NCBI RefSeq assembly: GCF_006345805.1
Contig: NC_043026.1
Coordinates: 14,177,579 to 14,241,578 of the forward strand
Source of the DNA: Octopus sinensis
Lineage: Eukaryota
DNA length: 64,000 nucleotides
Reading direction: 5' to 3'
Shown: piece by piece, positions 4,073 through 60,769 of the stretch
How positions within the stretch are numbered: the first letter of the stretch is position 1
How the letters are laid out: each line of letters begins with the position of its first letter
Translations under genes and position numbers: made by a program
The notes under the pieces: generated by a model
Database searches by the model: none
What the model saw: only the letters and a program-made list of their open reading frames with translations
What the model was told of the DNA's origin: nothing

Positions 4073-4394
4073 TTATGTCCACCGGTCCTTTCCAATACAC
4101 TGACCCTTTCCTCCCCACCATTCCCATATGTTCTCATACCATGTCGGCTTGTAATAATCGGCAGCGTGTAGCATCGCACAAACACGACACCAAAATTGGA
4201 AATCAATAAATTCTCCTGTTCCTTTCCATTTGAAATACTCATTATAAAGAGTATCATTTTTATCAAGTTTATGCAGATAATCTGCCAATTCTTTTGGGGA
4301 TTTGAAATCCTCGTAGTGGATGTACGAATTCTCGGGTGCTACTTTACGATAGTCGTCGGGATGGGCACCCATTACAATTGGAATAACATTATAT
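4073..4394 (-). CDS. FucTA: Alpha-1,3-fucosyltransferase (GT10, FucTA-like), exon 2 of 2
   Basis: Acceptor TTTGTCTATTGCAG ends at 4395. It translates (K)YNVIPIVMGAHPDDY...SYIHYEDFKSPKELADYL...FWCRVCAMLH and joins exon 1 in phase 2. Confidence 0.9.
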
Positions 4395-4559
4395 CTGCAA
4401 TAGACAAAAGAAAAGAAAAAACGAAAATACAGCTGCCATAAACAATATTGGAATAAGAAATAATGATTCATGCGAGCAAATTATAGATAAATCATATATA
4501 ATGATATCATATAAAGAATAAGTTTATAAAAAGTTATGATAGCTTATGATTTGTTTGGC

Positions 4560-5004
4560 TCATTATTAAAGGTAAAGTGAAGACTTTAAAAACAAGATCT
4601 GGGTAGAATAGAAGCCTGGAAACTGAAAAAGTTAAGAAACACATGATTTAAGTCTTCTCTTGAGAAGATACTGGAAGCAGGTAAGCTTTTCGGATATCAG
4701 AAAAGGATGGATCAATATCCGCAGAACAGACTCTTTGAGACAGACCACTGGAGATTTTTATAAAGTACCAAAGATGAGAAGCCTAGTGCAGAAGTAAGTG
4801 CTGGAGTAAAATTTAGTATAATCCAGTCAATCATAATGAAGATGCAACATGATTGAAGAAAGTGGAGGAAGAAGTAGTGAGTGAAAAGCAGACAGATCTA
4901 AGACTAATGAGTGAAGTGATGGGGAAAATGCCGAATCGAAAGGGCTCAGGACCAGATTTCGTTCAAGGGTATTGGTTAAATAAATTTAGAAGCTTACATA
5001 TAAT

Positions 5005-5042
<38 letters not shown>

Positions 5043-5560
5043 CTTTTACTTGTTTCAGTCATTTGACTGCGGCCATGCTGGAGCACCGCCTTTAGTCGAA
5101 CAAATCGACCCCGGGACTTATTCTTTGTAAGCCCAGTACTATCGGTCTCTTTTGCCGAACCGCTAAGCTACGGAGGACGTAAACACACCATCATCGGTTG
5201 TCAACCGATGTTGGGGGGACAAACACAGACACACAAACATATACACACACATACATATATATATATACATATATACAACAGGCTTCTTTCAGTTTCCGTC
5301 TTCCAAATCCACTCACAAGGCATTGGTCGGCCCGAGGCTATAGCAGAAGACACTTGCCCAAGATGCCACGCAGTGGGACTGAACCCGGAACTATGTGGTT
5401 GGTAAGCAAGCTACTTACCACACAGCCACTCCTGCGGAGTGAACTGAGGAGAGAACTTTACGATCAGCTTAATGCAGGAATAATACCAGAATTGATAACT
5501 AGAGGGAGAAAATTACTCCTTATAAAAAGACAAAATCAATTAGAAAAGCTAGACTGAAGA
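4560..5560 (+). mobile_element. Decayed non-LTR retrotransposon RT fragment (R4/Dong-like), interrupted by a family C SINE, in the FucT intron
   Basis: MPNRKGSGPDFVQGYWLNKF resumes after the SINE as ELYDQLNAGIIPELITRGRKLLLIK, resembling early RT motifs. Confidence 0.55.
5040..5436 (-). mobile_element. Composite SINE, family C (tRNA-like head, CORE-like segment, microsatellite, second body). Other copies lie near 10780-11178, 14800-15195, 26561-26835, 28995-29320, 45800-46190 and 50050-50410.
   Basis: Minus head GGAGTGGCTGTGTGGTAAG...GGGTTCAGTCCC, then CTTGGGCAAGTGTCTT, and tail CCAGCATGGCCGCAGTCAAATGACTGAAACAAGTAAAAGA. Recurs many times in the window. Confidence 0.8.
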
Positions 5561-5894
5561 ACTAGCTACTGGGAAAATGCCAGCGAATGTGCGCCTACAC
5601 AGAAGCAAACAAGACATTATATAGATAGAACAGATAATGAAGTATACATATATGACTGCAGGAAGTCTTACGGATGTATACAGGAGGACAAATGTAACAT
5701 GCGACCCTCATTGTTGTACGTACATGCTAAAGCATACCCACAAAGCGTACACACATCGTTGCTAGAGTTTCATTGAAATAACATTAACTATAGGGAATTA
5801 ACCAACTCTGAAGAATGAGAGCCATTCGAAAAGCACTACTTAGTCTCATTAATTCAAATACAAAGACACACGGATTTAAAATTCAAGTACTTAC

Positions 5895-6838
5895 TTCAAA
5901 CCATTAATGAAGAATTTTTCAGTAATATAATCTCTACAATTGGAATTTTCGAATGCCAAATAAAATTTGTATTCCTTTTTTAATATCTCAAAGCATTTAT
6001 TTTCATTCCTTCTCGTGCAAATTTTTGTACCACATCTACCGTAAATATCCACTTGGATATATTTTCCGAGCTCCTTAGCATAACCCATGCGATTGTTGCT
6101 TGGACCACAGTTCGATACGAACCAAGCAACCTTCTTTGTTTTTCCCGCTGCATAATTTTGAAATTGTACTTTTTGTCTTACTGACTTGTTAAAATATCGA
6201 AATTTTCCGTAAGGATATACAATCGTACTGTCCTGCTTATAAGTAATCGTCCAGTTGATTTTGTTTCCCAGGTGTTTCACTGATGGGTTGAAAAAAGGAC
6301 ACTCATGTGTCGTGTAAATCCATATTTGGTTCGTGTGGTTTGTTTTCTGTGATAGTCCCACTCTCTCATAAAAGAAAATAGCATCTACACTATTTTGCAT
6401 TGCTTTGTTGTTTGTGACTAAACATTCATTAACTGGACATTTATATTCCAGGAAACTCGTTTGATTTTCCTTCAATGGTTGCAGATATCTTAAACTATAT
6501 ATTAACAACGTTTTAAACTTTGGTCTATTTGGCTTTAACTTTACATTTCGATCAGAGTCTGACTGATTTTGGTGCCTATTCCGTTCATAATTTTCCCATT
6601 TTTCCTCTCCTGGTAGGACATATTTCATTTGAGCTTCGATACGATCGTTTTCAGGCTGATTACCTGGAAACAATCGAGAGGTATTCCTTGTGTAGGAAAC
6701 ATACTGCTTAGTTGTTGAAGTCCAATTCCAAATGTCTTGTAGTTTCTTGAGATTATATTCAAATTGAGAAATATAAAAACAAATGCATACTACTATGAAT
6801 ATGACAAAGAGGAAAAATATCTTGCGGTAGGTGTCCAT
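5895..6838 (-). CDS. FucTA: Alpha-1,3-fucosyltransferase (GT10, FucTA-like), exon 1 of 2. The spliced protein is 421 aa with a type II membrane anchor.
   Basis: N-terminal TM segment, VAWFVSNC, and the alpha-1,3-FucT motif YKFYLAFENSNCRDYITEKFF. Donor AA|GTAAGT at 5894. The intron is 1500 bp. Confidence 0.92.
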
Positions 6839-7249
6839 TCCTTATTTGGTGTGATGTGAACAGTTTCAAGTAGTTATTCATGTAGCAGTAAGTATTTCTT
6901 GAAAGAGGCAGTGAACTAGTTGACAGTTGAAGCACAGTTGACAAAATGTTTCGTTAGTAACTAGGATTTATAAAGACATACAACAAAAAATTATGAGCCA
7001 ATACACCGGCGATAAAATGCAGCCAAAATACATTCTAACGTCCTAAACAATGATGGAACGTATTTGTATTGAGATGTAAAATTTGAAAATCTAATAATGT
7101 AATCTGACCCGAGACTATTCAATTACGGGTTTGTTTAAATTTCCATTTGAGATCATGACATCTGTATTGATTTGAAACAACCTGCCAGTATGACGTTTCG
7201 TAGAGATCGATACAATAAAACAACTGGTCATACAACTACACTAGGACTG

Positions 7250-14068: not shown

Positions 14069-14390
14069 TTATGTCCACCGGTCCTTTCCAATACACTGAC
14101 CCTTTCCTCCCCACCATTCCCATACGTTTTCATACCATGTCGGCTTGTAATAATCGGCAGCGTGTAGCATCGCACAAACACGACACCAAAATTTGGTATT
14201 AATAAATTCTCCTGTTCCTTTCCATTTGAAATACTCATTATAAAGAGTATCATTTTTATCAAGTTTATGCAGATAATCTGCCAATTCTTTTGGGGATTTG
14301 AAATCCTCGTAGTGGATGTACGAATTCTCGGGTGCTACTTCACGATAGTCATCAGGATGGGCACCCATTACAATTGGAATAGCATTATAT
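14069..14390 (-). pseudogene. Orphan FucT exon-2 duplicate with an open frame and intact acceptor. No exon 1 was seen upstream in the window.
   Basis: Colinear with 4073..4394 (offset 9996): YNAIPIVMGAHPDDY...EFINTKFWCRVCAMLH. Homology spans about 13945-14510. Confidence 0.65.
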
Positions 14391-14931
14391 CTGCAATAGA
14401 CAAAAGAAAAAAATAAACGAAAATACAGCTGCCATAAACAATATTGGAATGAGAAATAATGATTCATGCAAGCAAATTATATATAAATCATATATAATGA
14501 TATCATAAAAAGTATATGTTTATAAACAGTTATATAACGGAGGAGTGTGCGTGTGTGTATACGTTTGCGTGTCTGTGTTTGTCTACCCAACATCGACTGA
14601 CAACCGATGCTAGTGTGTTTACGTCCCCGTCACTTAGCGGTTCGGCAAAAGAGACCGATAGAATGAGTACTGGGCTTACAAAGAACAAGTCCCGGGGTCG
14701 ATTTGCTCGACTAAAAGGCGGTGCTCCAGCATGGCCACAGTCAAATGACTGAAACAAGTAAAGGAGTAAAAGAGTGAAAATAGGAGAACTGTATATCCTG
14801 TGAGACCCCGGGACTTATTCTTTTGTAAGCCCAGTACTTATTCTATCGGATCTCTTTTGCCGAACCGCTAAGTGACGGCGACGTAAACACACCAGCATCG
14901 GTTGTCAAGCAATGCTAGGGGGACAAACATA

Positions 14932-28781: not shown

Positions 28782-28830
28782 ATGGCTACGTGTGGTGTAC
28801 GTTACTGCTTCCTGTTTGGTGTATTATTCG
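28782..28830 (+). CDS. Predicted coding exon 1 (signal peptide) of the M4 metalloprotease
   Basis: AAAAATGG start encodes MATCGVRYCFLFGVLF plus 1 nt, followed by donor G|GTGAGT. Phase 1 matches the acceptor at 37453, giving MATCGVRYCFLFGVLFAFLGRHIVASAKW. Confidence 0.7.
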
Positions 28831-29342
28831 GTGAGTTTAACATATTTTTCTATGTATATATATCTGTAGGTTTGTATGTGTGTGTCTGTGTGTCTGTGCA
28901 TAAGTTTGTTCGTGCGTTTGCGTGTATGTATGTATGTATGTATGTATGTATGTATGTATGTATGTATGTATGTTATATATATATATATCTTTCTCTTTTA
29001 CTTGTTTCAGTCATTTGACTGCGGCCATGCTGGAGCACCGCCTTTAATCGAGCAACTCGACCCCGGGACTTATTCTTTTGTAAGCCCAGTACTTATTCTA
29101 TCGGTCTATTTTGCCGAACCGCTAAGTGACGGGCACATAAACTCACCAGCATCGGTTGTCAAGCAATGCTAGAGGGACAAACACAGACACACAAACATAT
29201 ACACACACATACATATATATATACGACGGGCTTCTTTCAGTTGCCCAAAATGCCACGCAGTGGGACTGAACCCGGAACCATGTGGTTGGTTAGCAAGCTA
29301 CTTACCACACAGCCACTCCTGTTCCTATATATATACATATAT

Positions 29343-29411
<69 letters not shown>

Positions 29412-29447
29412 TATATATTATATATATATATATATTATATATATATA

Positions 29448-29479
<32 letters not shown>

Positions 29480-30039
29480 TGTACAGTCGCAAGCGTGGCT
29501 GTGTGGTAAGTTTGCCAACCAACCGCTTCGTTCCGGTTTCACCCGTAGTGTGGCACCGTGGGCGAGTGTGTTGTTCTATTGCCTCGGACCTACCAAAGCA
29601 TTGTGAGTGAATTTCATATATATGTGTGTGTGTACGTGTGTGCATATGTATATATGTATGTATTTGTGTGTGTATGTGTGTATATCTGTGTCTGTGCTTG
29701 TTCTCCCACCATCGCTCCACAACCAGTATCAGTGTGTTTACGTCCGCGTAACCTAGCGGTTCAACAAAAGAAAGCGATAGAATAAATACTAGGCTTAAGA
29801 AAATTCTTGGGGTCGATTTGTTCGACTAGAACCCCTGAAGGCGGTGCTCCAGCGTGGCCGCAGTCAAAAGACTCAAGCAAGTAAAGCTGGAAAGTAGGTT
29901 GTATCCAATTTTAAAGTCTTTATTTATTAATGAAAAACTTATGTTAAACGAAATACTTAATCATTAACATAACGTCCATTACTTCGTAGAATCTAATTCC
30001 ATCTCTCAACAAGCTTATAGATGCCACACTTGAAATATA

Positions 30040-30641
30040 TATTTCTTTACTGCCCACAAGGGGCTAAACATAGAAGGGACAAACAAGGACAGACAAAGGG
30101 ATCAAGTCAATTACATCGACCCCAGTGCGAAACTGGTACTTAATTAATCGACCCCGAAAGTTTGAAAGGCAAAGTCGACCTCGGCGGAATTTGAACTCAG
30201 AACGCAGCGGCAGACGAAATACCTATTTCTTTATTATCCACAATGGGCTAAACACAGAAGGGACAAACAAGGACAGACAAACGGATTAAGCCGATTACAT
30301 CGACCCCAGTGCGTAACTGGTACTTAATTTATCGACCCCGAAAGGATGAAAGGCAAAGTCGACCTCGGCGGAATTTGAACTCAGAACGTAACGACAGACG
30401 AAATACCTATTTCTTTACTGCCCACAAGGGGCTAAACATAGAGAGGACAAACAAAGACAGACAAAGGGATCAAGTCGATTACATCGACCCCAGTGCGAAA
30501 CTGGTACTTTATTTATCGATCCCGAAAGGATGAAAGGCAAAGTCGACCTCGGCGGAATTTGAACTCAGAACGTAACGACAGACGAAATACTACTAAGCAT
30601 TTCGCGCCCGGCGCGCTAACGTTTCTGCCAGCTCACCGCCT
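30040..30641 (-). repeat. SINE family A trimer
   Basis: Three ~184-bp bodies, one head, and the same junction as the other arrays. Confidence 0.85.
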
Positions 30642-31007
30642 ATGTCCCACACTTGAAATATAATTTAGGTTTTGATGCAAAGTTCGGTACCAATTAGATT
30701 TCAACCTGTTCTTCTCTCGTTGTCAACCTGAAACCATTGAAATTAATTCCGTAATCCCCTAAACAAATGATAATCAGAAGCTGCAAGGTCAGAAGAAGGT
30801 GGAAGATAAAGCAATTCCTCCCACCTGATCTCTTCTAAGGAATTTTTACTCGGTTGTACAGTGTGTGGTGGGCGAGCATTATCGCGAAGCAAGCTTCCTC
30901 TCTTTGACTAAGGACGGGTGATTTTTGTCCAAAGCAGCTTTCAAGCAACGAAGTGGATCGCAATAAAGATTGGTGTTGATCGTTTGATTATTGTGTAACA
31001 GTTTGTA

Positions 31008-31957
31008 TTTGGTTGTCCGGAAAGTTCGTGCTGATTTATAGTAGCTTACCTTTCGACTTATTTTAGAACATGGTTGAGTCCATAAAATAGGATTTGACTA
31101 CACCTCCATTTAGAGCACAGTTTAAGCTATCTTTTCGTGGAAGAAGGTTTATGTTCCTATAACCTGTGTTAATTCTGTAACCCTTTAAAATGGAAGATAA
31201 GAAAGTTCATTTTCGGCACTTGATGCTTTGGGAACCAGACGAAAATTGTTGCAGCTCGGCTGGGATGTGTTACCCCACCCTCCATATTCACCAGATATTG
31301 CTCCTTCGGATTTCCACTAATTCAGGTCTTTACAGAATAGTTTTAATGGTAAAAATTTCAATTCCTTGGATGACGTAAAAAGATACCTTGATGAATTCTT
31401 TGCCATGAAACCCCTCTCAATTCTGGGAAAAGGGTCTTTTCAAGTTAAAGGAAAGATGGAAACCCATAAAATAGGATTTGACTACACCTCCATTTAGAGC
31501 ACGGTTTAAGCTATCTTTTCGTGGAAGAAGGTTTATGTTCCTATAAACTGTCTTAATTCTGTAACCCTTTAAAGTGGAAGATAAGAAAGTTCATTTTCGG
31601 CACTTGATGCTTTGGGAACCAGACAAAAATTGCTGCAGTTTGGCTGTGATGTGTTACCCCACCCTCCATATTCACCAGATATTGCTCCATCGGATTTCCA
31701 CTAATTCAGGTCTTTACAGAATAGTCTTAATGGTAAAAATTTCAATTCCTTGAATGACGCAAAAAGATACCTTGATGAATTCTTTGCCATGAAATCACCT
31801 CAATTCAGGGAAGAGGGTATTTTCAAGTTAATGGAAAGATGGAGACGCATTGTGCAAGAAAATGGTTCATATTTGGTTGATTAAAAATGTAATGGCAAGT
31901 ATTTATTGACCTTTTTCTTTCCTTTAAAAATCGGCACGAACTCTCCGGACAACCCAA
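31008..31957 (+). mobile_element. Internally deleted mariner element with TIRs and a ~383-bp internal tandem duplication
   Basis: TIRs TTTGGTTGTCCGGAAAGTTCGTGCTGATTT and AAATCGGCACGAACTCTCCGGACAACCCAA, with TA flanks. MEDKKVHFRHLMLWE is joined to LGWDVLPHPPYSPDIAPSDFH. Confidence 0.85.
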
Positions 31958-32397
31958 TAATAGCTAATTCCTTGAAAATTCCACCATACATTGAACATGT
32001 TCTTCTTTGAATGAAATAATTCTCTTTGTTGCTATGGAGATCTGCTTCCTCGACTGATCTATTGACGACGGTTTTTAACGTTATGATAAAGTTTCCACTT
32101 CTCATCACTCGTAACAAACCTACCCTCAAAGCGGCTTCTGACGTTGTTGTGTAGGCAATGGTTGACAACAAGCGACACATTGTTGCTGATTCTCCGGAGA
32201 CAGGTCGTACGGAACCCATTTTCTAACCACTGAAACCTTTCTACTAACGGTTTTTTTTAAAATACTTAATAACGTTCTGTTTATCATTTAGGCAGTCATC
32301 GTAATTGTTATAACGTCTTTTTGTTGAGATAGGCTCTCTTTCTTTCCCGATGAGAAGATTGCATTTTACACATAGTTTATTCCTTTGGAATAAATCA

Positions 32398-32643
32398 ATG
32401 TTGTCTTCGAAATATATGTCGAAAGTAAAAGAATTTTAATAACATCTTCGTTCAACTCCATTTATTTACTTATACTACACAAATTACTGCACATTAACCC
32501 GGAGCTTCTACCTTTGAATAGGTCGCTTCATCCGTGTTACTTGCGTGAATTTTGCTACCCTGGTAACTGTTTATTGAATTTTCCATGTTAATGGTAAACA
32601 AAGGATAATTCATTCATCCATTTATTTATACATACATACATAC

Positions 32644-32689
<46 letters not shown>

Positions 32690-33842
32690 ATACTAAGAGA
32701 GAGAGAGAGAGAAAAGAGAAAGGTTTTTCATAAATGTAGAAACATTGAGTGGCGTGGGTTGGTATTTTATAGAAAACCAAGTGAATTTTCAACGCGGGTT
32801 AGCTGTGAATACAGCCTTGAAAATTGAGTAAATTCTTCTTGGTTATTTTTTCCCCGTCTTCTAGGGGTATTTATCGAATTTTCTAGGCTGTATTCACAGT
32901 TATTCCACGTTCGAAATTTTATCTATATATATAAAACTGTATTTATCGAATTTTCTAGGCTGTATTCACAGTTATTCCACGTTCGAAATTTTATCTATAT
33001 ATATAAAACTGTAGTTGTGTGAGTGTCTGTCTCCTACGATTTAGATTCCTAACTCCTCCCACATTTTGCGGTGCAGTTTAACCAAATTCGGGTATCATAT
33101 AGTCGTGATTAATATCGAGCCCGTCTGGGTATTAGCGCGCGTCTACGATGAATCTACAATTTTAAAAATAATTTAACATCATTTTTATTCCATTTTAATG
33201 CATAATTTTTCGTGTGTCGATGGCGGCGGAGTTGGCGTCCACGCTCAAACACCTGCACCTGTGTTTGCTTCTCCCCCTTCTTCCCTCCCTCGTGAATCTG
33301 TGGGGAAGGGAGTTTAAGGAAATCAACGTCGTAATGCGTTGTCAAGGAGACCAGCGTTCTTTTAGAACAACGACTTCATGGCTTGAAGACACCAAAACCG
33401 AAATGGCTAAGAAAGCCCGAATTGGCATCTATAAGGGAAGTAACTCTCTAAAAATGCTTATATAGTTATTTCCCTTACAAACCCGAGCAACGCCGGGTGA
33501 TACTGCTAGTATATATATAAAAGGTATTTTTAATACAGATTTTCTAAATATATTTTTAAGAGTATATTTTTTATTGCAAAATTTTTTAACAACAACTGTG
33601 TTAAAATCTGAAGTTCGTAAATTTATATCTTCGAGCTCCGCAGCCCATTGTAATTTCGGATAATGGGCGAAAAATCAATTTATAACACGTTTGCCGTTCC
33701 TCATTTTATTTTTTACATTCATTGTTACGAATCGATTTTCTTTTAATGTGTAGTAATTTGTGTAGTATAAGTAAATAAATGGAGTTGAACGAAGATGTTA
33801 TTAAAATTCTTTTCCTTTCGACATGTGTTTCGAAGACAACAT
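32398..33842. mobile_element. Foldback/MITE-like element with ~100-bp inverted arms
   Basis: 32398-32497 is the near-perfect reverse complement of 33743-33842. Confidence 0.65.
32994..33509 (+). mobile_element. Non-autonomous Helitron, family H2
   Basis: A|TCTATATATATAAA ... CCCGAGCAACGCCGGGTGATACTGCTAG|T. Related copy at 51133..51510. Confidence 0.85.
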
Positions 33843-33848
33843 ATTATT

Positions 33849-33907
<59 letters not shown>

Positions 33908-33999
33908 TAGCATCATTATAATAATAATAAGAAGATTTCAATAAGATTTCAATAAGATTTTAATAATAATAATAATTATTATTATTATTATTATTATCC

Positions 34000-34036
<37 letters not shown>

Positions 34037-34045
34037 TAGCATCAT

Positions 34046-34077
<32 letters not shown>

Positions 34078-34193
34078 GATTTTAATAAGATTTTAATAAG
34101 ATTTTAATAATAATAATTATTATTATTGTAATTATTATTATCATTATTATTATTATTATCATCATCATCATTATCATTATAATAATAATAATA

Positions 34194-34238
<45 letters not shown>

Positions 34239-34296
34239 GAAGAAGAAGAGAAGAAGAAGAAGAAGAAGAAGAAGAAGAAGAATGATAATAATGATA

Positions 34297-34327
<31 letters not shown>

Positions 34328-34596
34328 GTATCCAGTCATTCGTTATTTCGAGATATTTGGCCAGTCCAATTGTGGTTGTTTTGTAAGCTAGTTCAAATTG
34401 GATCAGGCCTCTACCTCCTTGGGCTCTGGGAAGGTAAAGGCGATCTACGTCTGCCTTTGGGTGGTGCATCCTATTACAACTCAGCAGCTTGCGTATTTTC
34501 CCATCGATATTCTTTACTTCACTCATATTCCAGTTCAACACATTGTAGCTATAAGTAACAACTGGAACTGCTAAGGAAAGTAACAACTGGAACTGC

Positions 34597-34631
<35 letters not shown>

Positions 34632-35624
34632 TATGTTTGACTTTTGCTTTATATTTGTACAAGTTGGCTCCAAGTCTCACCCAGAGACCTCAAGAGACAA
34701 CAGGTTGGAAGTTCATGTTGTTGTTATGCCTAGTGTGCCATATATTGGGGGGGGGTATTTTGGTGTTGTACTAATGAATGTCTAAAAAATAATTTTTTTT
34801 TTTTTTTAAACCGAAAATTATGTTTGTTTTAAACCTTGAGATTACATAGAAAGTATTTTGCGTAGGATAGGAGCAGTTCCCATGAGCACTATCTTTTGAA
34901 TTTCTGCCATTTTTGGGTTTCTTGGTATCTGAGTTAGGTAGCTATCAGTCCCTTTTGCTATCATTCCCAGGGCACCTATGACAACAGGTATTGTTTTAGT
35001 CTTCAGGTTCCACATTTTGCTGATTTCTATTTCAAGATCTTTATATTTACTCAGTTTTTGGTAGGTCTTGACAGATACGTTTATATCGATAGGGACAGTC
35101 ATATCAATGAGGAGGCATGTTCTTTATTTGAAGTCTTTCAATATGATGTCTGGCCTATTTGCATCTATCTTTCTGTCAGTTTGAATGGTGAAGTTCCAGA
35201 GGAGTGAGATGTGGTCATTTTCAAGCACTGGGGGTGGTTTGTGTTCCCACCAGTTTTTTTCATGGGGCAAATCCAGGTTTTTGCAGATTACCCAGTGAAT
35301 ATATTGTGCAGCTCTATCGTGCCTGTTGAGATACTCTGTAGGCGCTAGAAGACTGCACTTGGAGACCACATGATCAATGGACTGCACTTGGAGACCACAT
35401 GATCAATGGACTGCACTTGGAGACCACATGATCAATGGACTGCACTTGGAGACCACATGATCAATGGACTGCACTTGGAGACCACATGATCAATGGACTG
35501 CACTTGGGGACCACATGATCAATGGTTATTATTATTATTATTATTATCATCATCATCATTATTATTATTATTATTATTATTATCATTATTATTATTATTA
35601 TTATCATTATTATTATCATCATCA

Positions 35625-35658
<34 letters not shown>

Positions 35659-35747
35659 CATTATTATTATTATTATCATTATTATTATTATTATCATTAT
35701 TATTATAATTATTACTATTATTATTATTATTATTATTATTATTGTTA

Positions 35748-35787
<40 letters not shown>

Positions 35788-35841
35788 CATCATCATCATC
35801 ATTATTATTATTATTATTAACATTATTATTATAATTATTAC

Positions 35842-35917
<76 letters not shown>

Positions 35918-36128
35918 GAAACAAAGCACAGGTTCGGATTTATGTGGGTAGTGGCTCATTGTCTGTAATCTTAAGTATCAACAGGTTTTCGGTAGTTCTT
36001 AGAACCCTCCTGATAATTCTAACTGTCCCCAAGAAGCAAACTTTCTGTAGGAGATCTACCGGGAATTCTATTTTAATATCCTCCAGCCCTTTTTCTATAT
36101 CTTGGCTTACTCTCCCCCAACGCCCCAA
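34328..36128 (-). mobile_element. R4/Dong-like (restriction-like endonuclease) non-LTR retrotransposon fragments inside (TAA)n tracts
   Basis: RT C-terminus HHPKADVDRLYLPRAQGGRGL (34328-34586). Zinc knuckle and endonuclease IDHVVSKC..RHD..NRPDII..KY..IPVVIGALG (34842-35390). A second C-terminus LLQKVCFLGTVRIIRRVL (35940-36128). Confidence 0.85.
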
Positions 36129-36394
36129 TTATTATAAGCACGATCTTTACTGTTCGAATACCTATTTCTTTATTACCCACAAGGGGCTAAACACAGAGAG
36201 GACAAACAAGGACAGACACACGGATTAAATCGATTATATCGACCCCAGTGCGTAACTGGTACTTATTTAATCGACCCCGAAAGGTTGAAAGGCAAAGTCG
36301 ACCTCGGCGGAATTTGAACTCAGAACGCAGCGGCGGACGAAATACCGCAAAGCATTTCGCCCGGCGTGCTAACGTTTCTGCCAGGTCGCCACCT

Positions 36395-36456
<62 letters not shown>

Positions 36457-37009
36457 GAGTGAGCGAGCAGAGCATGCCATCAAAGTGACACTGGGGTAAA
36501 ATATACGAAGCCCAGTATACCCATCATGACTACCCGTCTGATAAGGGTACACCAGGCACATGCATCACAACCATATGTGCGCGATATGGTGATCTCATAT
36601 CAAGATAAACAGCACATGACCTTGCAGGTGGAGCCCAGTTAGAATTTTCTTCAGATCGAGTAACCCATCCTGCTCAAATGGTCCCTGAATAAGGGTTGTT
36701 TAAGGACGTTGAACGAAACACCCATGTTTCAGAGGTGAATTATTCAAACCCCAAAGAATCCTTCTCAACACATGGCTATGATGCTCCCCCACTACTTCTG
36801 CTCGTGATCAGAGATGCACATATCGTCAGCCACTAAGGGACATGCTCAACTGGTTAAGGTCAAACAACTGACAAGCAAATCTGTGGTATTGAGCAGAATA
36901 TTTGCTGTAGCCCATCTTTTATACCAAGACAAAACAATGTACATGATAACACTTCCAATCAGTTAAGATCAGAAGCCATGAGAGCCACTGCCTGGTACTG
37001 CATCAGGGC
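36457..37009 (-). mobile_element. Longest copy of the (TAA)n-embedded non-coding element
   Basis: Reverse complement of 17013-17553, with TAA repeats on both sides. Confidence 0.65.
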
Positions 37010-37029
37010 TATCATTATTATTATCATCA

Positions 37030-37081
<52 letters not shown>

Positions 37082-37362
37082 CATTATTATTATTATTATC
37101 ATCATCATCATCATTATTATTATTATTACTGTTCGAATACTCCAAGTTTTTCCTCATTCAAATTTTAAGGGATTCTCTTTCTCTATTTTCTCTTTTACTT
37201 GTTTCAGTCAGTTGACTGCGGCCGTGTTGGAGCACCGCTTTTAGTCGAGCAACTCGACCCCGGGACTTATTCATTATTATTATTATCATTATTATTATTA
37301 TTGTTATTGATATTATTATCATTATTATTATTGTTGTTATTATTATTATTATTATCATTATT

Positions 37363-37421
<59 letters not shown>

Positions 37422-37453
37422 CATTATTATTATTATTCTCTTCCTCTGTCTAG

Positions 37454-39303
37454 CTTTCCTGGGGAGACACATCGTGGCGTCAGCGAAATGGCGGCAGGCC
37501 AGGGACGTTTTCCTGTCAAACGTGGATACGCTTAGCGAGACGATGAAGCGACAGCCTAGTCACATGATCACCACACGTGACCTATTCGGTCTAACGAAGG
37601 ACGAGGACGTCGCACTAATGGACTCGGCACTCAGTGAACAAGGAACCGATATCAAAAAATACGGCGAGACTTACAGAGGAATTCCAGTATTTGATGCCAG
37701 CCTCACTGTGGAAGAGGACGCCAAAACGCACGTGTACACTGGTCAGGTGACTGGTAAACTGGTTCAGAACCTTGACGATGACATCAACTCTACGATCCCA
37801 AATTTGACCGACGAGGAAGCGAAGCAATTAGCTGCCAACTACGGAAACTTCTCTATGGAAGGGGCCCGCATTGACTATGATAAACCCCAGCTGATGATCT
37901 TCGTGAAGGACGATATAGGAATCCTGGTCTATCGAGTTCAATATTATGCCGTGTCTGATGCAAAAAATCATCGATTTTGCATGATGATTGATGCAAAGAA
38001 CGGAACACTTGTCTACAAATGGAACGCATTAGAGAATGTAACCAACAAATATGAAATGAAAGGTACGGGTGGTAATATGTTGATTGGCAAACAGAGCTAC
38101 GGAGAAAAACTACCATTTTTGAAAGTGACACGTAAAGGCGATGAGTGTTATTTCGCGAACGATGTCGTCAAAGTGGTGAATTTGCAAGGAGCACAGTTTT
38201 TGCCTAACGAGGAAGAACAAGTCTATCACGTCAACTGCCAAGATGGTGCGACAGATGAAGCGAACGGAGCTTTTTCTCCGATAAATGATGCTCTTTTCTA
38301 TGGCAACATCATCCACAGTATGTTCATAGAATGGCTGAAAGTTCCTCCGAAAAAAGTCTTGCCTATGGTCTTCCGCGTGCACTATGGTTACGATGTAGTG
38401 AATGCCTTTTTCAATGGCAGAAACTTCACGTTTGGTGATGGAGACTGGGATCACATGCCACTCGTCACCCTCGACATTGCGGCCCACGAAGTTGCCCATT
38501 GCTTCACGGAGGAACACTCAGGTTTAATATACGCGGGACAGTCGGGTGGTATCGACGAATCGTTCAGTGACCTGGCTGCTGAAGCGGTTGAATCCTTTTT
38601 TAATATAAACGAAAATAACGACTGGAAAATTGGAGAAGACATTGCAACAATACCAATGCGCAATATATGCAACCAATCAGAAGACGGGATGTCGATCACA
38701 CATGCCGGCAACTATAAAAGCAGTTTGGACGTTCATTACCTAAGCGGAGTATTCAACCGGTTCTACTGTTTGTTAGCCAAGTGGAAAGGCTGGAGTATTC
38801 AAATGGTCTTCCGGACAGCAGCACATTCCAACCGTTTCTATTGGCACCCAACAACCAACTACACTGAAGCCGCCTGTGACTTTATGAAGTCTGCCTATGA
38901 CCTTGGCTACGACACTGGACCCGTGTTAAAAGCTTTCACAAAGGTGGGCATCGAAGTATGTGATTTATCCTCATACATCAGAACAGTCCACCAGAACTCA
39001 AAAATCGAGGGTCTAAAAGCGATTGCCGGTCAAGAAGTCTTATTTCAACTAATCTTAACAGATTTGCCTTTAAAGAATGTGACAATTGCTACGTTTGGCG
39101 GCGGTGAAACAGATTTGTTTGTTTGCTACGAGAAGGTTCGCTGCAGTGAACATTTGACACAATGGCGATCGAACCTGCCTGGTTCTGAGCAACAGGTTTT
39201 GATTGAAAGTCCAAAGCAAGGCAAATATTTCATAATATTAAAACCAAAAGCCTCGAGTTATATCGAAGATGTAACTTTAGTGGTGACACTTGAAGAAGAT
39301 TAA
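37454..39303 (+). CDS. Peptidase family M4 (thermolysin/vibriolysin/elastase-like) zinc metalloprotease, main exon: FTP and PepSY propeptide, M4 catalytic domain, C-terminal PPC-like domain
   Basis: Propeptide YGETYRGIPVF and MIDAKNG. Catalytic motifs NAFFNG..FGDG, HEVAH (HExxH), GGIDESFSD and DVHYLSGVFN. PPC-like tail. Acceptor TTCTCTTCCTCTGTCTAG ends at 37453, and AATAAA follows the stop. Confidence 0.93.
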
Positions 39304-40411
39304 CAAATAAATTTGTTATGTTTTAAAGTAAAAACAAAAAAATAATTTTTGAACGATCTAAAACCCTGTTTCAAAAGGTTTATTAAAATAAAGATATTAA
39401 GCAATCACGTGACTTTTAGTTAATTTTCTCCAAAATTTTCAAGATTGAATCGGAAAGAATTCCAATGATCCAAACATGGGGAATTTCCGAAATCATTATC
39501 GATTATAATGTTTATATGTGGATGGATGGAAGCACTCCGTCGGTTACGACGACGAGGGTTCCGGTTGATCCGAATCAACAGAACAGCCTGCTCGTGAAAT
39601 TAACGTGTAAGTGGCTGAGCACTCCACAGACATGTGTACCCTTAACGCAGTTCTCGGGGAATATTCAGCGTGACACAGAGAGTGACAAGGCCGGCCCCTT
39701 GAAATACAGATACAACAGAAACAGGAAGTAAGAGTGAGAGAAAGTTGTGGTGAAAGAGTACAGCAGGGATCACCACCATCCCCTGCCGGAGCCTCATGGA
39801 GCTTTAGGTGTTTTCGCTCAATAAACACTAACAACGCCCGGTCTGGGAATCGAAACCGCGATCCTATGACCGCGAGTCCGCTGCCCTAACCACTGGGCCA
39901 TTGCGCCTCCACTGTTTATATGTATCTATGTATGTTTATATGAATGTATCTTTCTCTCTCTCTTTCTCTCTCTTCCTCTGTGTGTGTGCGTATAAGAGGG
40001 AGAGAGAGAGAGAGAGAGAGATAGGGAGAGAGGGAGAGAGAGAGAGGTATGTATATGATACAAAACACATTGAAATACGAATCCAAAACCGAAGAAACTA
40101 GCAAAGAAAGAAAGAAAGAAATATTGAGAAAAAGGTAAGAGAGATGAAGAAAGAAAAAACCTCAATGCAGTACCAAGTGTTTCAATTGGTCGCACACCAC
40201 AAGGTCCAACGGAACCTGCAAAAGTAAGCCAACGCACTCGTGGTATTACCACCGGTGATGACGAGGCCAAGGCTTTGGAAGAGCCAAGCACACTCACGAA
40301 GTTAAGCAATAGCAGCAGTCCTAGAGTAAAATATTTCTATAGTCAGACTTATAGAATGTGTAACGTTGAAAGTCCAGAAGCTACAGAAAAAGAAAACCCT
40401 TTATAGTAGTA

Positions 40412-40899: not shown

Positions 40900-43030
40900 A
40901 CTCTTTTACTCTTTTACTTGTTTCAGTCATTTTGACTGCGGCCATACTGGAGCACCGCCTTTAGTCGAGCAAATCGACCCCAGGACTTATTCTTTTGTAA
41001 GCCCAGTACTTATTCTATCGGTCTCTTTTACTTGTTTCAGTCATTTGACTGCGACCATGCTGGAGCACCGCCTTTTAATCGAGCAAATCGACCCCAGGAC
41101 TTATTCTTTTGTAAGCCCAGTACTTATTCTATCGGTCTCTTTTACTTGTTTCAGTCATTTGACTGCGGCCATGCTGGAGCACCGCCTTTAGTCGAGCAAA
41201 CTCGACCCCGGGACTTAATCTTTTATAAGCCCAGTACTTATTCTATCGGTCTCTTTTGCCGAAACGCTAAGTGACGGGGACATAAACATACCAGCATCGG
41301 TTGTCAAGCAATGCTAGGGGGACAATCACAGACACACAATCACACACACGCATATATATATATATGCATATATACGACGGGCTTCTTTCAGTTTCCGTCT
41401 ACCAAATCCACTCACAAGGCATTGGTCGGCCCGAGGCTATAGTAGAAGACACTTGCCCCAGGTGCCACGCAGTGGGACTGAACCCGGAACCATGTGGTTG
41501 GTAAACAAGCTACTTACCACACAGCCACTCCTGCACACACATATATATATATACATATATACGATGGGCTTCTTTCAGTTTCCATCTACCAAATCCACTC
41601 ACAAGGCTTTGGTCGGCCCGAGGCTATAGTAGAAGACACTTGTCCAAGGTGCCACGCAGTGGGACTGAACCCGGAACCATGTGGTTTGTAAACAAGCTAC
41701 TTACCACACAGCCACTCCTGCACACACATATATATATATATACATATATACGATGGGCTTCTTTCAGTTTCCGTCTACCAAATCCACTCACAAGGCTTTG
41801 GTCGGCCCGAGGCTATAGTAGAAGACACTTGTCCAAGGTGCCACGCAGTGGGACTGAACCCGGAACCATGTGGTTTGTAAACAAGCTACTTACCACACAG
41901 CCACTCCTGCACACACATATATATATATATACATATATACGATGGGCTTCTTTCAGTTTCCGTCTACCAAATCCACTCACAAGGCTTTGGTCGGCCCGAG
42001 GCTATAGTAGAAGACACTTGCCCAAGGTGACACGCAGTGGGACTGAACCCGGAACCATGTGGTTTGTAAACAAGCTGCTTACCACACAGCCACTCCTGCA
42101 CACACATATATATATATACATATATACGATGGGCTTCTTTCAGTTTCCGTCTACCAAATCCACTCACAAGGCTTTGGTCGGCCCGAGGCTATAGTAGAAG
42201 ACACTTGTCCAAGGTGCCACGCAGTGGGACTGAACCCGGAACCATGTGGTTTGTAAACAAGCTACTTACCACACAGCCACTCCTGCACACACATATATAT
42301 ATATATACATATATACGATGGGCTTCTTTCAGTTTCCGTCTACCAAATCCACTCACAAGGCTTTGGTCGGCCCGAGGCTATAGTAGAAGACACTTGTCCA
42401 AGGTGCCACCCAGTGGGACTGAACCCGGAACCATGTGGTTTGTAAACAAGCTACTTACCACACAGCCACTCCTGCACACATATATATATATACATATATA
42501 CGATGGGCTTCTTTCAGTTTCCGTCTACCAAATCCACTCACAAGGCTTTGGTCGGCCCGAAGCTTTAGTAGAAGACACTTGTCCAAGGTGCCACGCAGTG
42601 GGACTGAACCCGGAACCATGTGGTTTGTAAACAAGCTACTTACCACACAGCCACTCCTGCACACATATATATATATATACATATATACGATGGGCTTCTT
42701 TCAGTTTCCGTCTACCAAATCCACTCACAAGGCTTTGGTCGGCCCGAGGCTATAGTAGAAGACACTTGTCCAAGGTGCCACGCAGTGGGACTGAACCCGG
42801 AACCATGTGGTTTGTAAACAAGCTACTTACCACACAGCCACTCCTGCACACATATATATATACATATATACGATGGGCTTCTTTCAGTTTCCATCTACCA
42901 AATCCACTCACAAGGTTTTGGTCGGCCCGAGGCTATAGCAGAAGACACTTGTCCAAGGTGCCTCGCAGTGGGACTGAACCCGGAACCATGTGGTTTGTAA
43001 GCAAGCTACTTACCACACAGCAACTCCTGC
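40900..43030 (-). repeat. SINE family C with nine tandem ~189-bp 5' modules (41370-43030) and a triplicated 3' module (40900-41255)
   Basis: ACGATGGGCTTCTTTCAG...CCACTCCTGC repeats at 41561, 41750 and onward. TTTTACTTGTTTCAGTCATTT...CTATCGGTCTC occurs three times. Confidence 0.9.
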
Positions 43031-43539
43031 ATACTAATATCACTTTCGAAAGGAAGTCGAAAAAGATTTTACTCCAGAGCTGTTGATGCGAAGAGCCTTA
43101 CGAGAACATTTCCTGCCATAGGCCCGGGCCTTCTTACTAGATTTAGTAGACGGAAACTGAGAGAATCCCGTTGAATCATCATCATAATTCCATCATCATC
43201 GTTTAACATCTGCCCTACATGGTGGCATGGGTTGCATGGTTTAACAAGAGCCAGTCAGGTAGAAGACATCCCCCGGCTACTGTCTCTGTTTTGGTATAGG
43301 TTTTAGGACTAGCGGCCGTTCAAACCGAAAAGTTCCCAAAAGTTTAAAATCTATATCAATTTGACGAAAACAATGAACAGAGTCTGGGAGCGAACCCGTG
43401 TCGTCGCCCTTTTGTGCATGTGCGTAAAATGGAAATCTAACACTTTAGGGCAGATTTCGTCAAATTGTGTTTGAGAAATAAAATGCGTTTACCTGTTTAA
43501 AATGTGAAACGCTGGGGAAATTAAAACAACGAATTGAAA

Positions 43540-46340: not shown

Positions 46341-48312
46341 AGGCGGCGATGTGGCAGGTCGGGCGAAATGCTTAGTGGTATTTCGTCTGCCGCTACGCTC
46401 TGAGTTCTGAGTTCAAATTCCGCCGAGGTCGACTTTGCCTTTCATCCTTTCGGGGTCGATAAATTAAGTACCAGTTACGCACTGGGGTCGATACAATCGA
46501 CTTAGTCTGTTTGTCTGTCTTTGTTTGTCTCCTCTGTGTTTAGCCCCTTGTGGGTAATAAAGAAATAGGTATTTCGTCTGCCGCTACGCTCTGAGTTCAA
46601 ATTCCGCCGAGGTCGACTTTGCCTTTCATCCTTTCGGGGTCGATTAAATAAGTACCAGTTACGCACTGGGGTCGATGTAATCGACTTAATACCTATGTCT
46701 GTCCTTGTTTGTCCCCTCTGTGTTTAGCCCCTTGTGGGTAATAAAGAAATAGGTATTTCGTCTGCCGCTACGCTCTGAGTTCAAATTCCGCCGAGGTCGA
46801 CTTTGCCTTTCATCCTTTCGGGGTCGATTAAATAAGTACCAGTTACGCACTGGGGTCGATGTAATCGACTTAATACCTATGTCTGTCCTTGTTTGTCCCC
46901 TCTGTGTTTAGCCCCTTGTGGTAATAAAGAAATAGTATTTCGTCTGCCGCTACGCTCTAAGTTCAATTCCGCCGAGGTTCCTTTGCCTTTCATCCTTCGG
47001 GGTCGATTAATAAGTACCAGTTACGCAATGGGGTCGATGTAATCGACTTAACCCTATGTCTGTCCTTGTTTGTCCTGTCTGTGTTTAGCCCCTTGTGTGT
47101 AATAAAGAAATAGGTATTTGTCTGCCGCTACGCTGAGTTCAAATTCCGCCGAGGTCGACTTTGACTTTCATCTTTTCGGGGTCGATTAAACAAGTACCAG
47201 TTACGCACTGGGGTCGATGTAATCGACTTAATACCTATGTCTGTCCTTGTTTGTCCCCTCTTGTTTAGAGCCCCTTGTGGGTAGTAAAGATAGGTATTTC
47301 GTCTGCCTCTACGCTCTGAGTTCAAATTCCGCCGAGGTCGATTCTGCCTTTCATCCTTTCGGGGTCGATTAAATAAGTACCAGTTACGCACTGGGGTCGA
47401 TGTAATCGACTTAATACCTATGTCTGTCCTTGTTTGTCCCCTCTGTGTTTAGCCCCTTGTGGGTAGTAAAGAAATAGGTATTTCGTCTGCCGCTACGCTC
47501 TGAGTTCAAATTCCGCCGAGGTCGACTTTGCCTTTCATCCTTTCGGGGTTGATTAAATAAGTACCAGTTACGTACTGGGGTCGATACAATCGACTTAGTC
47601 CGTTTGTCTGTCTTTGTTTGTCCTCTCTTGTTTAGCCCCTTATGGGTAATAAAGAAATAGGTATTTCGTCTGCCGCTACGCTCTGAGTTCAAATTCCGCC
47701 GAGGTCGACTTTGCCTTTCATCCTTTCGGGGTTGATTAAATAAGTACCAGTTACGTACTGGGTCGATACAATCGACTTAGTCCGTTTGTCTGTCTTTGTT
47801 TGTCCTTCTGTGTTTAGCCCCTTATGGGTAATAAAGAAATAGGTATTTCGTCTGCCGCTACGCTCTGAGTTCAAATTCCGCCGAGGTCGACTTTGCCTTT
47901 CATCCTTTCGGGGTTGATTAAATAAGTACCAGTTACGCACAGGGGTCAATGTAATCGACTTAATACCTATGTCTGTCCTTGTTTGTCCCTTCTATGTTTA
48001 GCCCCTTGTGGGTAATAAAGAAATGGGTATTTCGTCTGCCGCTACGCTCTGAGTTCAAATTCCGCCGAGGTCGACTTTGCCTTTCATCCTTTCGGGGTCG
48101 ATAAATTAAGTACCAGTTACGCACTGGGGTCGATGTAATCGACTTAATCCCTTTGTCTGTCCTTGTTTGTCCCCTCTGTGTGTAGCCCCCTGTGGGTAAT
48201 AAAGAAATAGGTATTTCGTCTGCCTCTACGCTCTGAGTTCAAATTCCGCCGAGGTCGACTTTGCCTTTCATCCTTTCGGGGTCGATTAAATAAGTACCAG
48301 TTACGCACTGAG
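46341..48312 (+). repeat. SINE family A array, about eleven 184-bp units with one head
   Basis: Junction AAAGAAATAGGTATTTCGTCTG at 46568, 46752 and onward. Confidence 0.9.
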
Positions 48313-48650
48313 GTCGTAGGAGAAGGAGATGGCTGCAGTGTAGCGGTGGTGAGGTCGTCCTGGAAATCGGAAGTGTCGAAGTGCTGACGCAGCTCGGCTC
48401 TGAAAAGCAAAGTATTACAACCACAAGAACGAGGCGCAGTGCTAAGAGACTGAAAACTGGTTCCGAGGTTGGTTTGAATCGTATTCTCTTTCTCGCATTA
48501 CAGTTCCCTCACATTAACAGACGTTTATTTGTACTATATCTCTATTGATTTGTGTTTATCAGCGTAAATTCAAAAGATAAGCAAATACACACACACACAC
48601 GCACAGGCACAAGCACAAGAACGTACATTCTTATCTACATGTGTGTGTGT

Positions 48651-57716: not shown

Positions 57717-60700
57717 GGATCTTTTCGGTTTGGACGGCAGTTTTTAACATAATTTCTAGGTAACTAAAAAATGTTAAACTTCGTATACTGGTAGAATGTG
57801 TTTATAAAACATCTTTTTCTCTTGGCTTTATTGAGAAAATTCTATAGTTTGTAAGATATGGATCTTTTCGGTTTGAACGGCAGTTTTTAACATAATTTCT
57901 AGGTAACTAAAAAATTTTAAACTTCGTATACTGGTAGAATGTGTTTATAAAACATCTTTTTCTCTTGGCTTTATTGAGAAAATTCTATAGTTTGCAAGAT
58001 ATGGATCTTTTCGCTTTGAACGGCAGTTTTTAACATAATTTCTAGGTAACTAAAAGATTTTAAACTTCGTATACTGGTAGAATGTGTTTATAAAACATCT
58101 TTTTCTCTTGGCTTTATTGAGAAAATTCTATAGTTTCTAAGATATGGATCTTTTCGGTTTGAACGGCAGTTTTTAACATGATTTCTAGGTAACTAAAAGA
58201 TTTTAAACTTCGTATACTTCGTAGTGTAGAATGTGTTTATAAAACATCTTTTTCTCTTGGCTTTATTGAGAAAATTCTAGAGTTTCTAAGATATGGATCT
58301 TTTCGGTTTGAACGGCAGTTTTTAACATAATTTCTAGGTAACTAAAAGATTTTAAACTTCGTATACTGGGTTAGAATGTGTTTATAAAACATCTTTTTCT
58401 TTTGGCTTTATTGAGAAAATTCTATAGTTTGCAAGATATGGATCTTTTCGGTTTGAACGGCAGATTTTAACATAATTTCTAGGTAACTAAAAAATTTTAA
58501 ACTTCGTATACTGGTAGAATAGTGTGTGTTTATAAAACATCTTTCTCTTGCCTTTATTGAGAAAATTCTATAGTTTGCAAGATATGGATCTTTTCGGTTT
58601 GAACGGCAGTTTTTAACATAATTTCTAGGTAACTAAAAGATTTAAAACTTCGTATACTGGTAGAATGTGTTTATAAAACATCTTTTTCTCTTGCCTTTAT
58701 TGAGAAAATTCTATAGTTTGCAAGATATGGATCTTTTGGGTTTGAACGGCAGATTTTAACATAATTTCTAGGTAACTAAAAAATTTTAAACTTCGTATAC
58801 TGGTAGAATGTGTTTATAAAACATCTTTTTCTCTTGGCTTTATTGAGAAAATTCTATAGTTTCTAAGATATGGATCTTTTCGGTTGTTTGAACGGCAGTT
58901 TTTAACATAATTCTAGGAACTAACTAAAAGATTTTAAACTTCGTATACTGGTAGAATGTGTTTATAAAACATCTTTTTCTCTTGGCTTTATTGAGAAAAT
59001 TCTATAGTTTGTAAGATATGGATCTTTTCGGTTTGAACGGCAGTTTTTAACATAATTTCTAGGTAACTAAAAGATTTTAAACTTCGTATACTGGTAGAAT
59101 GTGTTTATAAAACATCTTTTTCTCTTGGCTTTATTGAGAAAATTCTATAGTTTCTAAGATATGGATCTTTTCGGTTTGAACGGCAGTTTTTAACATAATT
59201 TCTAGGTAACTAAAAGATTTAAAACTTCGTATACTGGTAGAATGTGTTTATAAAACATCTTTTTCTCTTGGCTTTATTGAGAAAATTCTATAGTTTGTAA
59301 GATATGGATCTTTTCGCTTTGAACGGCAGTTTTTAACATAATTTCTAGGTAACTAAAAGATTTTAAACTTCGTATACTCGTAGAATGTGTTTATAAAACA
59401 TCTTTTTCCCTTGGCTTTATTGAGAAAATTCTATAGTTTGTAAGATATGGATCTTTTCGGTTTGAACGGCAGTTTTTAACATAATTTCTAGGTAACTAAA
59501 AGATTTTAAACTTCGTATACTGGTAGAATGTGTTTATAAAACATCTTTTTCTCTTGGCTTTATTGAGAAAATTCTAGAGTTTCTAAGATATGGATCTTTT
59601 CGGTTTGAACGGCAGTTTTTAACATAATTTCTAGGTAACTAAAAGATTTTAAACTTCGTATACTGGTAGAATGTGTTTATAAAACATCTTTTTCTCTTGG
59701 CTTTATTGAGAAAATTCTATAGTTTGTAAGATATGGATCTTTTCGGTTTGAACGGCAGTTTTTAACATAATTTCTAGGTAACTAAAAGATTTTAAACTTC
59801 GTATACTGGTAGAATGTGTTTATAAAACATCTTTTTCTCTTGGCTTTATTGAGAAAATTCTATAGTTTCTAAGATATGTATCTTTTCGGTTTGAACGGCA
59901 GTTTTTAACATAATTTCTAGGTAACTAAAAGATTTTAAACTTCGTATACTGGTAGAATGTGTTTATAAAACATCTTTTTCTCTTGGCTTTATTGAGAAAA
60001 TTCTATAGTTTCTAAGATATGGATCTTTTCGGTTTGAACGGCAGTTTTTAACATAATTTCTAGGTAACTAAAAGATTTTAAACTTCGTATACTGGTAGAA
60101 TGTGTTTATAAAACATCTTTTTCTCTTGGCTTTATTGAGAAAATTCTATAGTTTCTAAGATATGGATCTTTTCGGTTTGAACGGCAGTTTTTAACATAAT
60201 TTCTAGGTAACTAAAAGATTTTAAACTTCGTATACTGGTAGAATGTGTTTATAAAACATCTTTTTCTCTTGCCTTTATTGAGAAAATTCTATAGTTTGCA
60301 AGATATGGATCTTTTCGGTTTGAACGGCAGATTTTAACATAATTTCTAGGTAACTAAAAAATTTTAAACTTCGTATACTGGTAGAATGTGTTTATAAAAC
60401 ATCTTTTTCTCTTGCCTTTATTGAGAAAATTCTATAGTTTGCAAGATATGGATCTTTTCGGTTTGAACGGCAGATTTTAACATAATTTCTAGGTAACTAA
60501 AAAAATTTAAACTTCGTATACTGGTAGAATGTGTTTATAAAACATCTTTTTCTCTTGCCTTTATTGAGAAAATTCTATAGTTTGCAAGATATGGATCTTT
60601 TCGGTTTGAACGGCAGATTTTAACATAATTTCTAGGTAACTAAAAAATTTTAAACTTCGTATACTGGTAGAATGTGTTTATAAAACATCTTTTTCTCTTG

Positions 60701-60769
60701 CCTTTATTGAGAAAATTCTATAGTTTGCAAGATATGGATCTTTTCGGTTTGAACGGCAGATTTTAACAT
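57717..60769. repeat. 143-bp satellite, about 21 copies, derived from a MITE terminus
   Basis: Unit GGATCTTTTCGGTTTGAACGGCAG...GTAAGATAT (57717, 57860, ...) is the reverse complement of 43809-43951. Confidence 0.95.

Follow-up and report, generated by a model that had tools for sequence, protein, structure and literature searches.

A gene for a bacterial-type M4 metalloprotease that is found in an octopus assembly raises the question of whether it truly belongs to the animal and, if so, from where and when it came. The gene occupies positions 28782 to 39303 on the forward strand of a 64,000-nucleotide stretch of Octopus sinensis DNA (the window; GCF_006345805.1, NC_043026.1, positions 14,177,579 to 14,241,578), and all coordinates below are window positions unless a contig is named. 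The explanation that best fits the evidence as a whole, to which we assign a probability of roughly 0.7, is a transcribed gene for a predicted secreted zinc protease that likely stems from one ancient bacterial transfer into a mollusc ancestor and most probably serves protein digestion in the gut or the digestive gland.

A spliced gene in the octopus genome

The coding part of exon 1 (28782-28830, +) comprises 49 nt, i.e. 16 codons and one base, and holds the start codon and the first 16 residues of a predicted signal peptide. The ATG has an A at -3 and a G at +4, and the exon ends in a G directly before the phase-1 donor GTGAGT. The intron (28831-37453, +; 8,623 nt, GT-AG, phase 1) is located within the signal peptide, contains dispersed repeats and microsatellites, and closes with the acceptor CTAG preceded by a pyrimidine-rich tract. 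The coding part of exon 2 (37454-39303, +; 1,850 nt) encodes the remaining signal peptide, the propeptide, the catalytic domain, a PPC tail and the stop codon, and the joined model is a protein of 632 aa.

An earlier note, made from the letters of the DNA alone, had proposed this two-exon model with a 49-nt signal exon and a phase-matched GT-AG intron, and it was confirmed by contigs from three studies and by RefSeq. In all three RNA-like contig sets the match ended at 37453 and went on into exon 1, covering its last 30 letters, which places the junction 28830/37454 in each of them. Two of the three sets further carried an A-run past 39405, 3' of an AATAAA signal at 39387-39392, and the poly(A) site was accordingly placed near 39405 (+). 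As the contigs carry both a splice junction and an A-tail, they show a transcript, although the RNA nature of the source runs is a guess (none is recorded as RNA) and exon 1 appears in the contigs only as loose ends, which do not fix its 5' start. A fourth, large run whose kind is not recorded had a gap at the junction and was hence uninformative there. Four same-species runs gave next to no matching words and have no bearing on expression. The RefSeq protein XP_029653361.2 (Octopus sinensis; P0248), automatically named 'virulence metalloprotease-like', was identical to the 632-aa model in its first 16 residues, the junction Ala and the whole exon-2 translation. The bacterial-code open reading frame starts at a GTG (37474) and lacks a signal peptide, as the earlier note had observed; a single-exon model with this start was ruled out by the spliced contigs and the RefSeq identity. 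The GC content at third codon positions was 0.50 in exon 2 versus 0.35 in one neighbouring exon, a single comparison that gives no donor signal at such an age.

Two genome searches found at least 10 M4 loci on five large contigs, seven with an open large exon and three interrupted in the assembly. They belong to two groups of the trees described below: group A with copies on C30 (two), C27 and C10, and group B with copies on C11 (five) and C3. An AG acceptor was present at the same offset before the aligned anchor in 10 of 10 copies, with the C3 anchor shifted by two codons. Of seven upstream stretches of 9.9 kb, five, from both groups, contained a first coding exon that counts 16-17 codons and a single further base and is followed by a GT donor; no first exon was found within 9.8 kb upstream of the C27 copy and the C11:71.46 Mb copy. 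Because both groups share the site, the intron would be older than their duplication, provided that the anchors are homologous, an assumption backed by the alignment. At G000:C11:71405335-71486937, four group-B copies stand in tandem over about 82 kb, one of them with an early in-frame stop. The copies L108 (C11:31.41 Mb) and L109 (C10:4.19 Mb) are broken by frame changes or a stop and may be pseudogenes or assembly errors.

The intron, the repeats, the paralogues and the spliced, A-tailed contigs establish that the gene is an expressed part of the host genome, and it is virtually certain that it is a real, spliced octopus gene. Bacterial contamination of the assembly would account for the bacterial type of the sequence and for nothing further. 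It is refuted by the spliced and polyadenylated transcript, by orthologues in three Octopus species and Argonauta, and by the 10 copies on five large contigs, which leave it a negligible chance; the reading of the earlier note as an animal gene was upheld. The ratio of nonsynonymous to synonymous substitution (dN/dS) was 0.15-0.19 among three paralogues, and the gene is under purifying selection. In one run, 7 of 10 variant codons were silent.

Architecture of the predicted protease

The protein is predicted to be a member of peptidase family M4 (thermolysin family) by its motifs, Pfam domains and modelled fold. Both halves of the catalytic domain (38050-38958, +) were well above the Pfam cut-offs: Peptidase_M4 (PF01447) scored 66.7 bits (cut-off 22.4, E 4e-18) and M4_C (PF02868) 91.9 bits (cut-off 24.4, E 5e-26). 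The motifs HEVAH, ESFSD and DVH listed in the earlier note are all present. In an alignment of 90 sequences His344, Glu345, His348, Glu368, Arg402 and His427 (P0001 numbering) were invariant; they include the HEVAH zinc-binding motif (H344, E345, H348; 38485-38499, +), the third zinc ligand Glu368 (38557-38559, +) and the His of DVH (38734-38736, +), which we take, by analogy with thermolysin, to be the transition-state histidine. The AlphaFold model had a mean predicted local distance difference test score (pLDDT) of 90, and its best Foldseek matches were MCP-02, ProA and pseudolysin. Against vibriolysin MCP-02 the predicted model matched with E 7.5e-33, a root-mean-square deviation (rmsd) of 1.4 and a target template modelling (TM) score of 0.96. 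Vibriolysin MCP-02, pseudolysin (LasB) and ProA share the zinc ligands with the octopus protein, and most top matches showed 37-40% identity and an rmsd of 1.3-2.2 over the mature domain.

Hydrophobicity peaked over residues 9-19 (Kyte-Doolittle 2.79 for this 11-residue window; next best 1.58), the core of the predicted signal peptide, and V-A-S-A follows. For the flanking regions, the earlier note had named an FTP/PepSY propeptide and a PPC tail. The regions themselves were recovered, whereas their Pfam assignment was not: in the 632-aa protein FTP reached only E 0.029, below the cut-off, PepSY did not match, and no PPC match was found in the C-terminal tail. Among 16 relatives, at E<=1, FTP was detected in 15 and PepSY in 13. 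The propeptide (approximately 37486-38049, +) matched the MCP-02 propeptide chain by phmmer (E 5.5e-8) and by Foldseek (3nqz_A, E 4e-11). The tail (approximately 38980-39300, +) scored 38 bits against a custom profile of 17 bacterial PPC tails, with 5.6 bits for the best of 580 shuffles, and Foldseek matched it weakly (E about 1e-3) with PPC and collagen-binding domains. With its propeptide, all catalytic residues and a PPC-like tail, the product is a vibriolysin/pseudolysin-type M4 protease, predicted to be secreted, and the architecture put forward in the earlier note therefore stood. The order signal, propeptide, catalytic domain and PPC is that of vibriolysins, but the octopus protein has one PPC domain and E495 and MCP-02 have two (PMC3327674).

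The octopus gene also differs from vibriolysin MCP-02, pseudolysin and ProA in its spliceosomal intron, a dibasic site in a longer early propeptide, and extra cysteines. Proprotein convertases typically recognise dibasic sites. In alignment A2, KR or RR occurred early in the propeptide in 32 of 36 animal-type sequences with an intact N-terminus (8 of 44 were excluded as truncated) versus 1 of 46 bacterial ones; a looser count gave 35 of 38 versus 8 of 83. As kin share it, the trait counts as one event, not 32. The Lys-Arg pair of the octopus protein (37546-37551, +) is thus a candidate site for cleavage by a host convertase. A cysteine after the second zinc His (HEVAHC; 38500-38502) is present in cephalopod group A and some relatives, with mostly glycine elsewhere. 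Members of group A also share an additional cysteine pair in the helical domain. N-glycosylation sequons did not separate the two sets (2.4 per core in animal-type and 2.5 in bacterial sequences).

Taxonomic range and origin

In the FastTree analyses 51 of 243 and 71 of 217 sequences formed a single clade with every named mollusc and no named bacterium. The named relatives are from Argonauta, Sepia, Pecten, Argopecten, Tegillarca, Pinctada, Haliotis and Pomacea. The IQ-TREE set of 51 sequences was composed of 26 hand-picked from the 71 of the animal-type clade and 25 bacterial ones. Twelve named mollusc and six species-unlabelled sequences formed a clade without a named bacterium (support 97/95), within a wider animal-type clade (99/88). 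This clade joined the pseudolysin-type bacteria, apart from four outgroups (Bacillus, Streptomyces, Burkholderia-plasmid), with 100/99. The old bacterial origin proposed in the earlier note was supported, and the transfer reaches well beyond octopus in both age and range. P0289 formed a long branch in the tree.

The mollusc relatives fell into three deep groups. Group A unites cephalopods and a scallop (100/99), and group B cephalopods, bivalves and gastropods (100/98). Cephalopod monophyly, with the seven cephalopod sequences held together, was rejected by the approximately unbiased (AU) test (p=2e-5), and the A/B duplication must therefore predate the cephalopod-bivalve split. In a third group (P0282, P0286, P0290, P0338, P0365; including Haliotis asinina), which was not found in the octopus genome, the propeptide is joined to the catalytic domain by long Thr-rich linkers. 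Several species-unlabelled proteins predicted on long contigs start shortly ahead of the propeptide and lack the full signal, the pattern expected from an intron there.

Eight animal-type sequences stood outside the mollusc-containing clade; seven are species-unlabelled and one, P0296, is filed under Siedleckia nematoides, an apicomplexan. This parasite had been collected from polychaete guts (Scoloplos cf. armiger), and the study reports host contamination (PMC6733595). P0296 may therefore derive from the annelid gut, which hints at annelid members of the family. In these non-exhaustive searches, where most matches are species-unlabelled, the named eukaryote matches were molluscs and two probable contaminations. 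The isopod record P0155, flagged as contamination, fell with Vibrio and is a useful negative control. A Perkinsus marinus expressed sequence tag paper mentions Peptidase_M4 twice (PMC2868825).

A single ancient bacterial origin is highly probable, and one transfer before octopuses, clams and snails split is likely. In this history a bacterial vibriolysin/pseudolysin-type gene would have been transferred into the ancestor of molluscs and would have gained one signal-peptide intron and the dibasic site. A duplication ahead of the cephalopod-bivalve divergence would then have given groups A and B, with octopus-level duplications afterwards. Several independent transfers could explain why the catalytic domains of groups A and B share no more than about 37-41% identity and why the base of the tree is short, but the mollusc clade (97/95), the common intron site and the common dibasic site make them very unlikely. 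A transfer into octopus only is excluded by the bivalve and gastropod members. Vertical descent of an ancient eukaryotic gene that most lineages have lost, without any transfer into animals, would suit an animal clade that is sister to all sampled pseudolysin-type bacteria and the one member filed under an apicomplexan. It is nevertheless most improbable: the apicomplexan study admits host contamination (PMC6733595), the other named eukaryote matches are all molluscs except the contamination-flagged isopod record, and a single huge coding exon suits a prokaryotic source. Moreover, the Atlas clusters among the matches listed were 98-100% bacterial, in an Atlas without small clusters.

Several points weigh against a single bacterial transfer. 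A tree with the 21 pseudolysin-type bacteria held together was not rejected (AU p=0.485), and a Legionella-type sequence was sister to the animal clade with 93/81, unstarred. The species-unlabelled sequences were called animal-type from their FastTree position, which makes the 99/88 partly circular; the AU groups were defined after inspection of the tree, and one 'cephalopod' sequence (P0017) is species-unlabelled. Non-spiralian eukaryotes were outside the systematic search, and the intron position was compared in the octopus genome alone. With p=0.485 the animal clade may equally be the sister group of every pseudolysin-type bacterium sampled, and no donor can therefore be named. The phylogeny called for in the earlier note thus recovered the mollusc clade (97/95) but not a donor, and its marine gammaproteobacterium was not shown.

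The bacterial transfer of the gene is already known and in print for octopus, so the novelty suggested earlier did not hold; to this we add modest new detail. In O. bimaculoides, seven Zn-metalloproteinases have been published as acquired from bacteria (Liu et al. 2018; PMC6011040). One of them, ZnMP1 (XP_014767445.1; P0004), is the orthologue, with 632 aa, identity at 545 of the 632 positions in an ungapped alignment and a sister position in the trees. Unlike the present work, that paper has a eukaryote list without invertebrates and a text without the intron position, the dibasic site or the A/B duplication. Mollusc M4 proteins annotated automatically as 'elastase-like' (Pecten, Argopecten, Tegillarca, Pinctada, Haliotis, Pomacea, Sepia, Argonauta) fall in the same clade with the same architecture and are 31-61% identical where reported. 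A literature search yielded no functional paper on them and, with subscription journals mostly outside its reach, none that treats the intron, the dibasic site or members from annelids. A companion article in Gene (2018) reportedly places most of the transfers in a molluscan ancestor and mentions introns. The added detail consists of the at least 10 copies, the common intron site, the range across cephalopods, bivalves and gastropods, the age of the A/B duplication and the dibasic site. The O. vulgaris annotation P0003 (CAI9743214.1; 579 aa) lacks the signal exon and the early propeptide.

Possible role, surroundings and meaning

A digestive or mucosal role of the protease has about an even chance. 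The assignment to a tissue is a best guess from one RT-PCR (reverse transcription polymerase chain reaction) and one gut-derived library. Hepatopancreas cDNA yielded amplicons of all seven ZnMPs (PMC6011040). Against this stands that the RT-PCR covered a single tissue of animals from a Chinese market whose species is unsure, and that it speaks for presence, not enrichment (PMC6011040). In Table 2 of the same paper the ZnMP1 forward and reverse primers are printed identically.

Two other roles, both with the same origin of the gene, were weighed. Recruitment of the window copy to saliva or venom as a tissue-digesting enzyme, a role also raised in the earlier note, would fit the predicted secretion, the four group A copies in the genome and the tissue damage caused by bacterial relatives; metalloproteases are abundant in the O. 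vulgaris posterior salivary gland (PMC7693380). It is unlikely: group A is present in scallops too, and three papers gave no support, with no M4 name or peptide of the gene in the searched part of the PMC7693380 supplement and no mention in the available text of a 2026 cephalopod venom preprint (bioRxiv 2026.02.02.703354) or of the Paroctopus gland transcriptome paper (PMC12607849). These negatives are weak, being term searches and not expression data. A part in immune defence or in the turnover of mucus or remodelling of matrix, whether in skin, arms or embryos, is likewise improbable. PPC tails resemble collagen-binding domains, and the gene is kept by filter feeders and grazers alike. As a further point against digestion, the Gene article reportedly proposed immune defence and tissue remodelling. 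On the other side, MCP-02 and E495 are inactive on elastin and insoluble collagen (PMC3327674), and no M4 name or accession occurs in the part consulted of the skin-mucus proteome supplement (PMC10138644), itself a weak negative.

On the preferred reading of a gut protease, the signal peptide would route the precursor to the secretory path, where a host convertase may clip the Lys-Arg site. The propeptide would guide folding, inhibit the enzyme and then be lost through self-cleavage as in the bacterial relatives, whose M4 precursors self-activate by propeptide removal (PMC3327674). The HExxH+Glu zinc site would cut before hydrophobic residues, the PPC tail may bind protein substrates, and the mature enzyme would be a broad endopeptidase of the digestive tract.

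Elsewhere in the window, tandemly duplicated GT10 fucosyltransferase genes are located on the minus strand (4076-6841, 11.6-12.7 kb and 14072-14476): one two-exon copy that is seemingly intact, a 96% identical first-exon copy with in-frame stops, and a further second-exon copy at 14 kb. Long tandem arrays with units of 143-189 bases occupy 41354-43031, 46406-48316 and 57717-60769, the first of which matches a dispersed repeat present elsewhere in the window.

M4 proteases have been described as almost exclusively bacterial (PMC7851659). An old animal branch of the family would be a clean case of a domesticated bacterial secreted enzyme, with the shared intron and dibasic site as testable marks of a single event. 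An annelid member, if true, would shift the transfer to the root of Lophotrochozoa. We put forward tentatively, as somewhat less than an even bet, that a vibriolysin-type gene entered the mollusc-annelid ancestor more than half a billion years ago and gained its intron and convertase site at once. It would thereby have given rise to an unrecognised gut protease family of these animals, in which activation shifted from pure self-cleavage to host control. For work on molluscs, matches to M4 or 'virulence metalloprotease' in transcriptomes are not to be taken as Vibrio infection.

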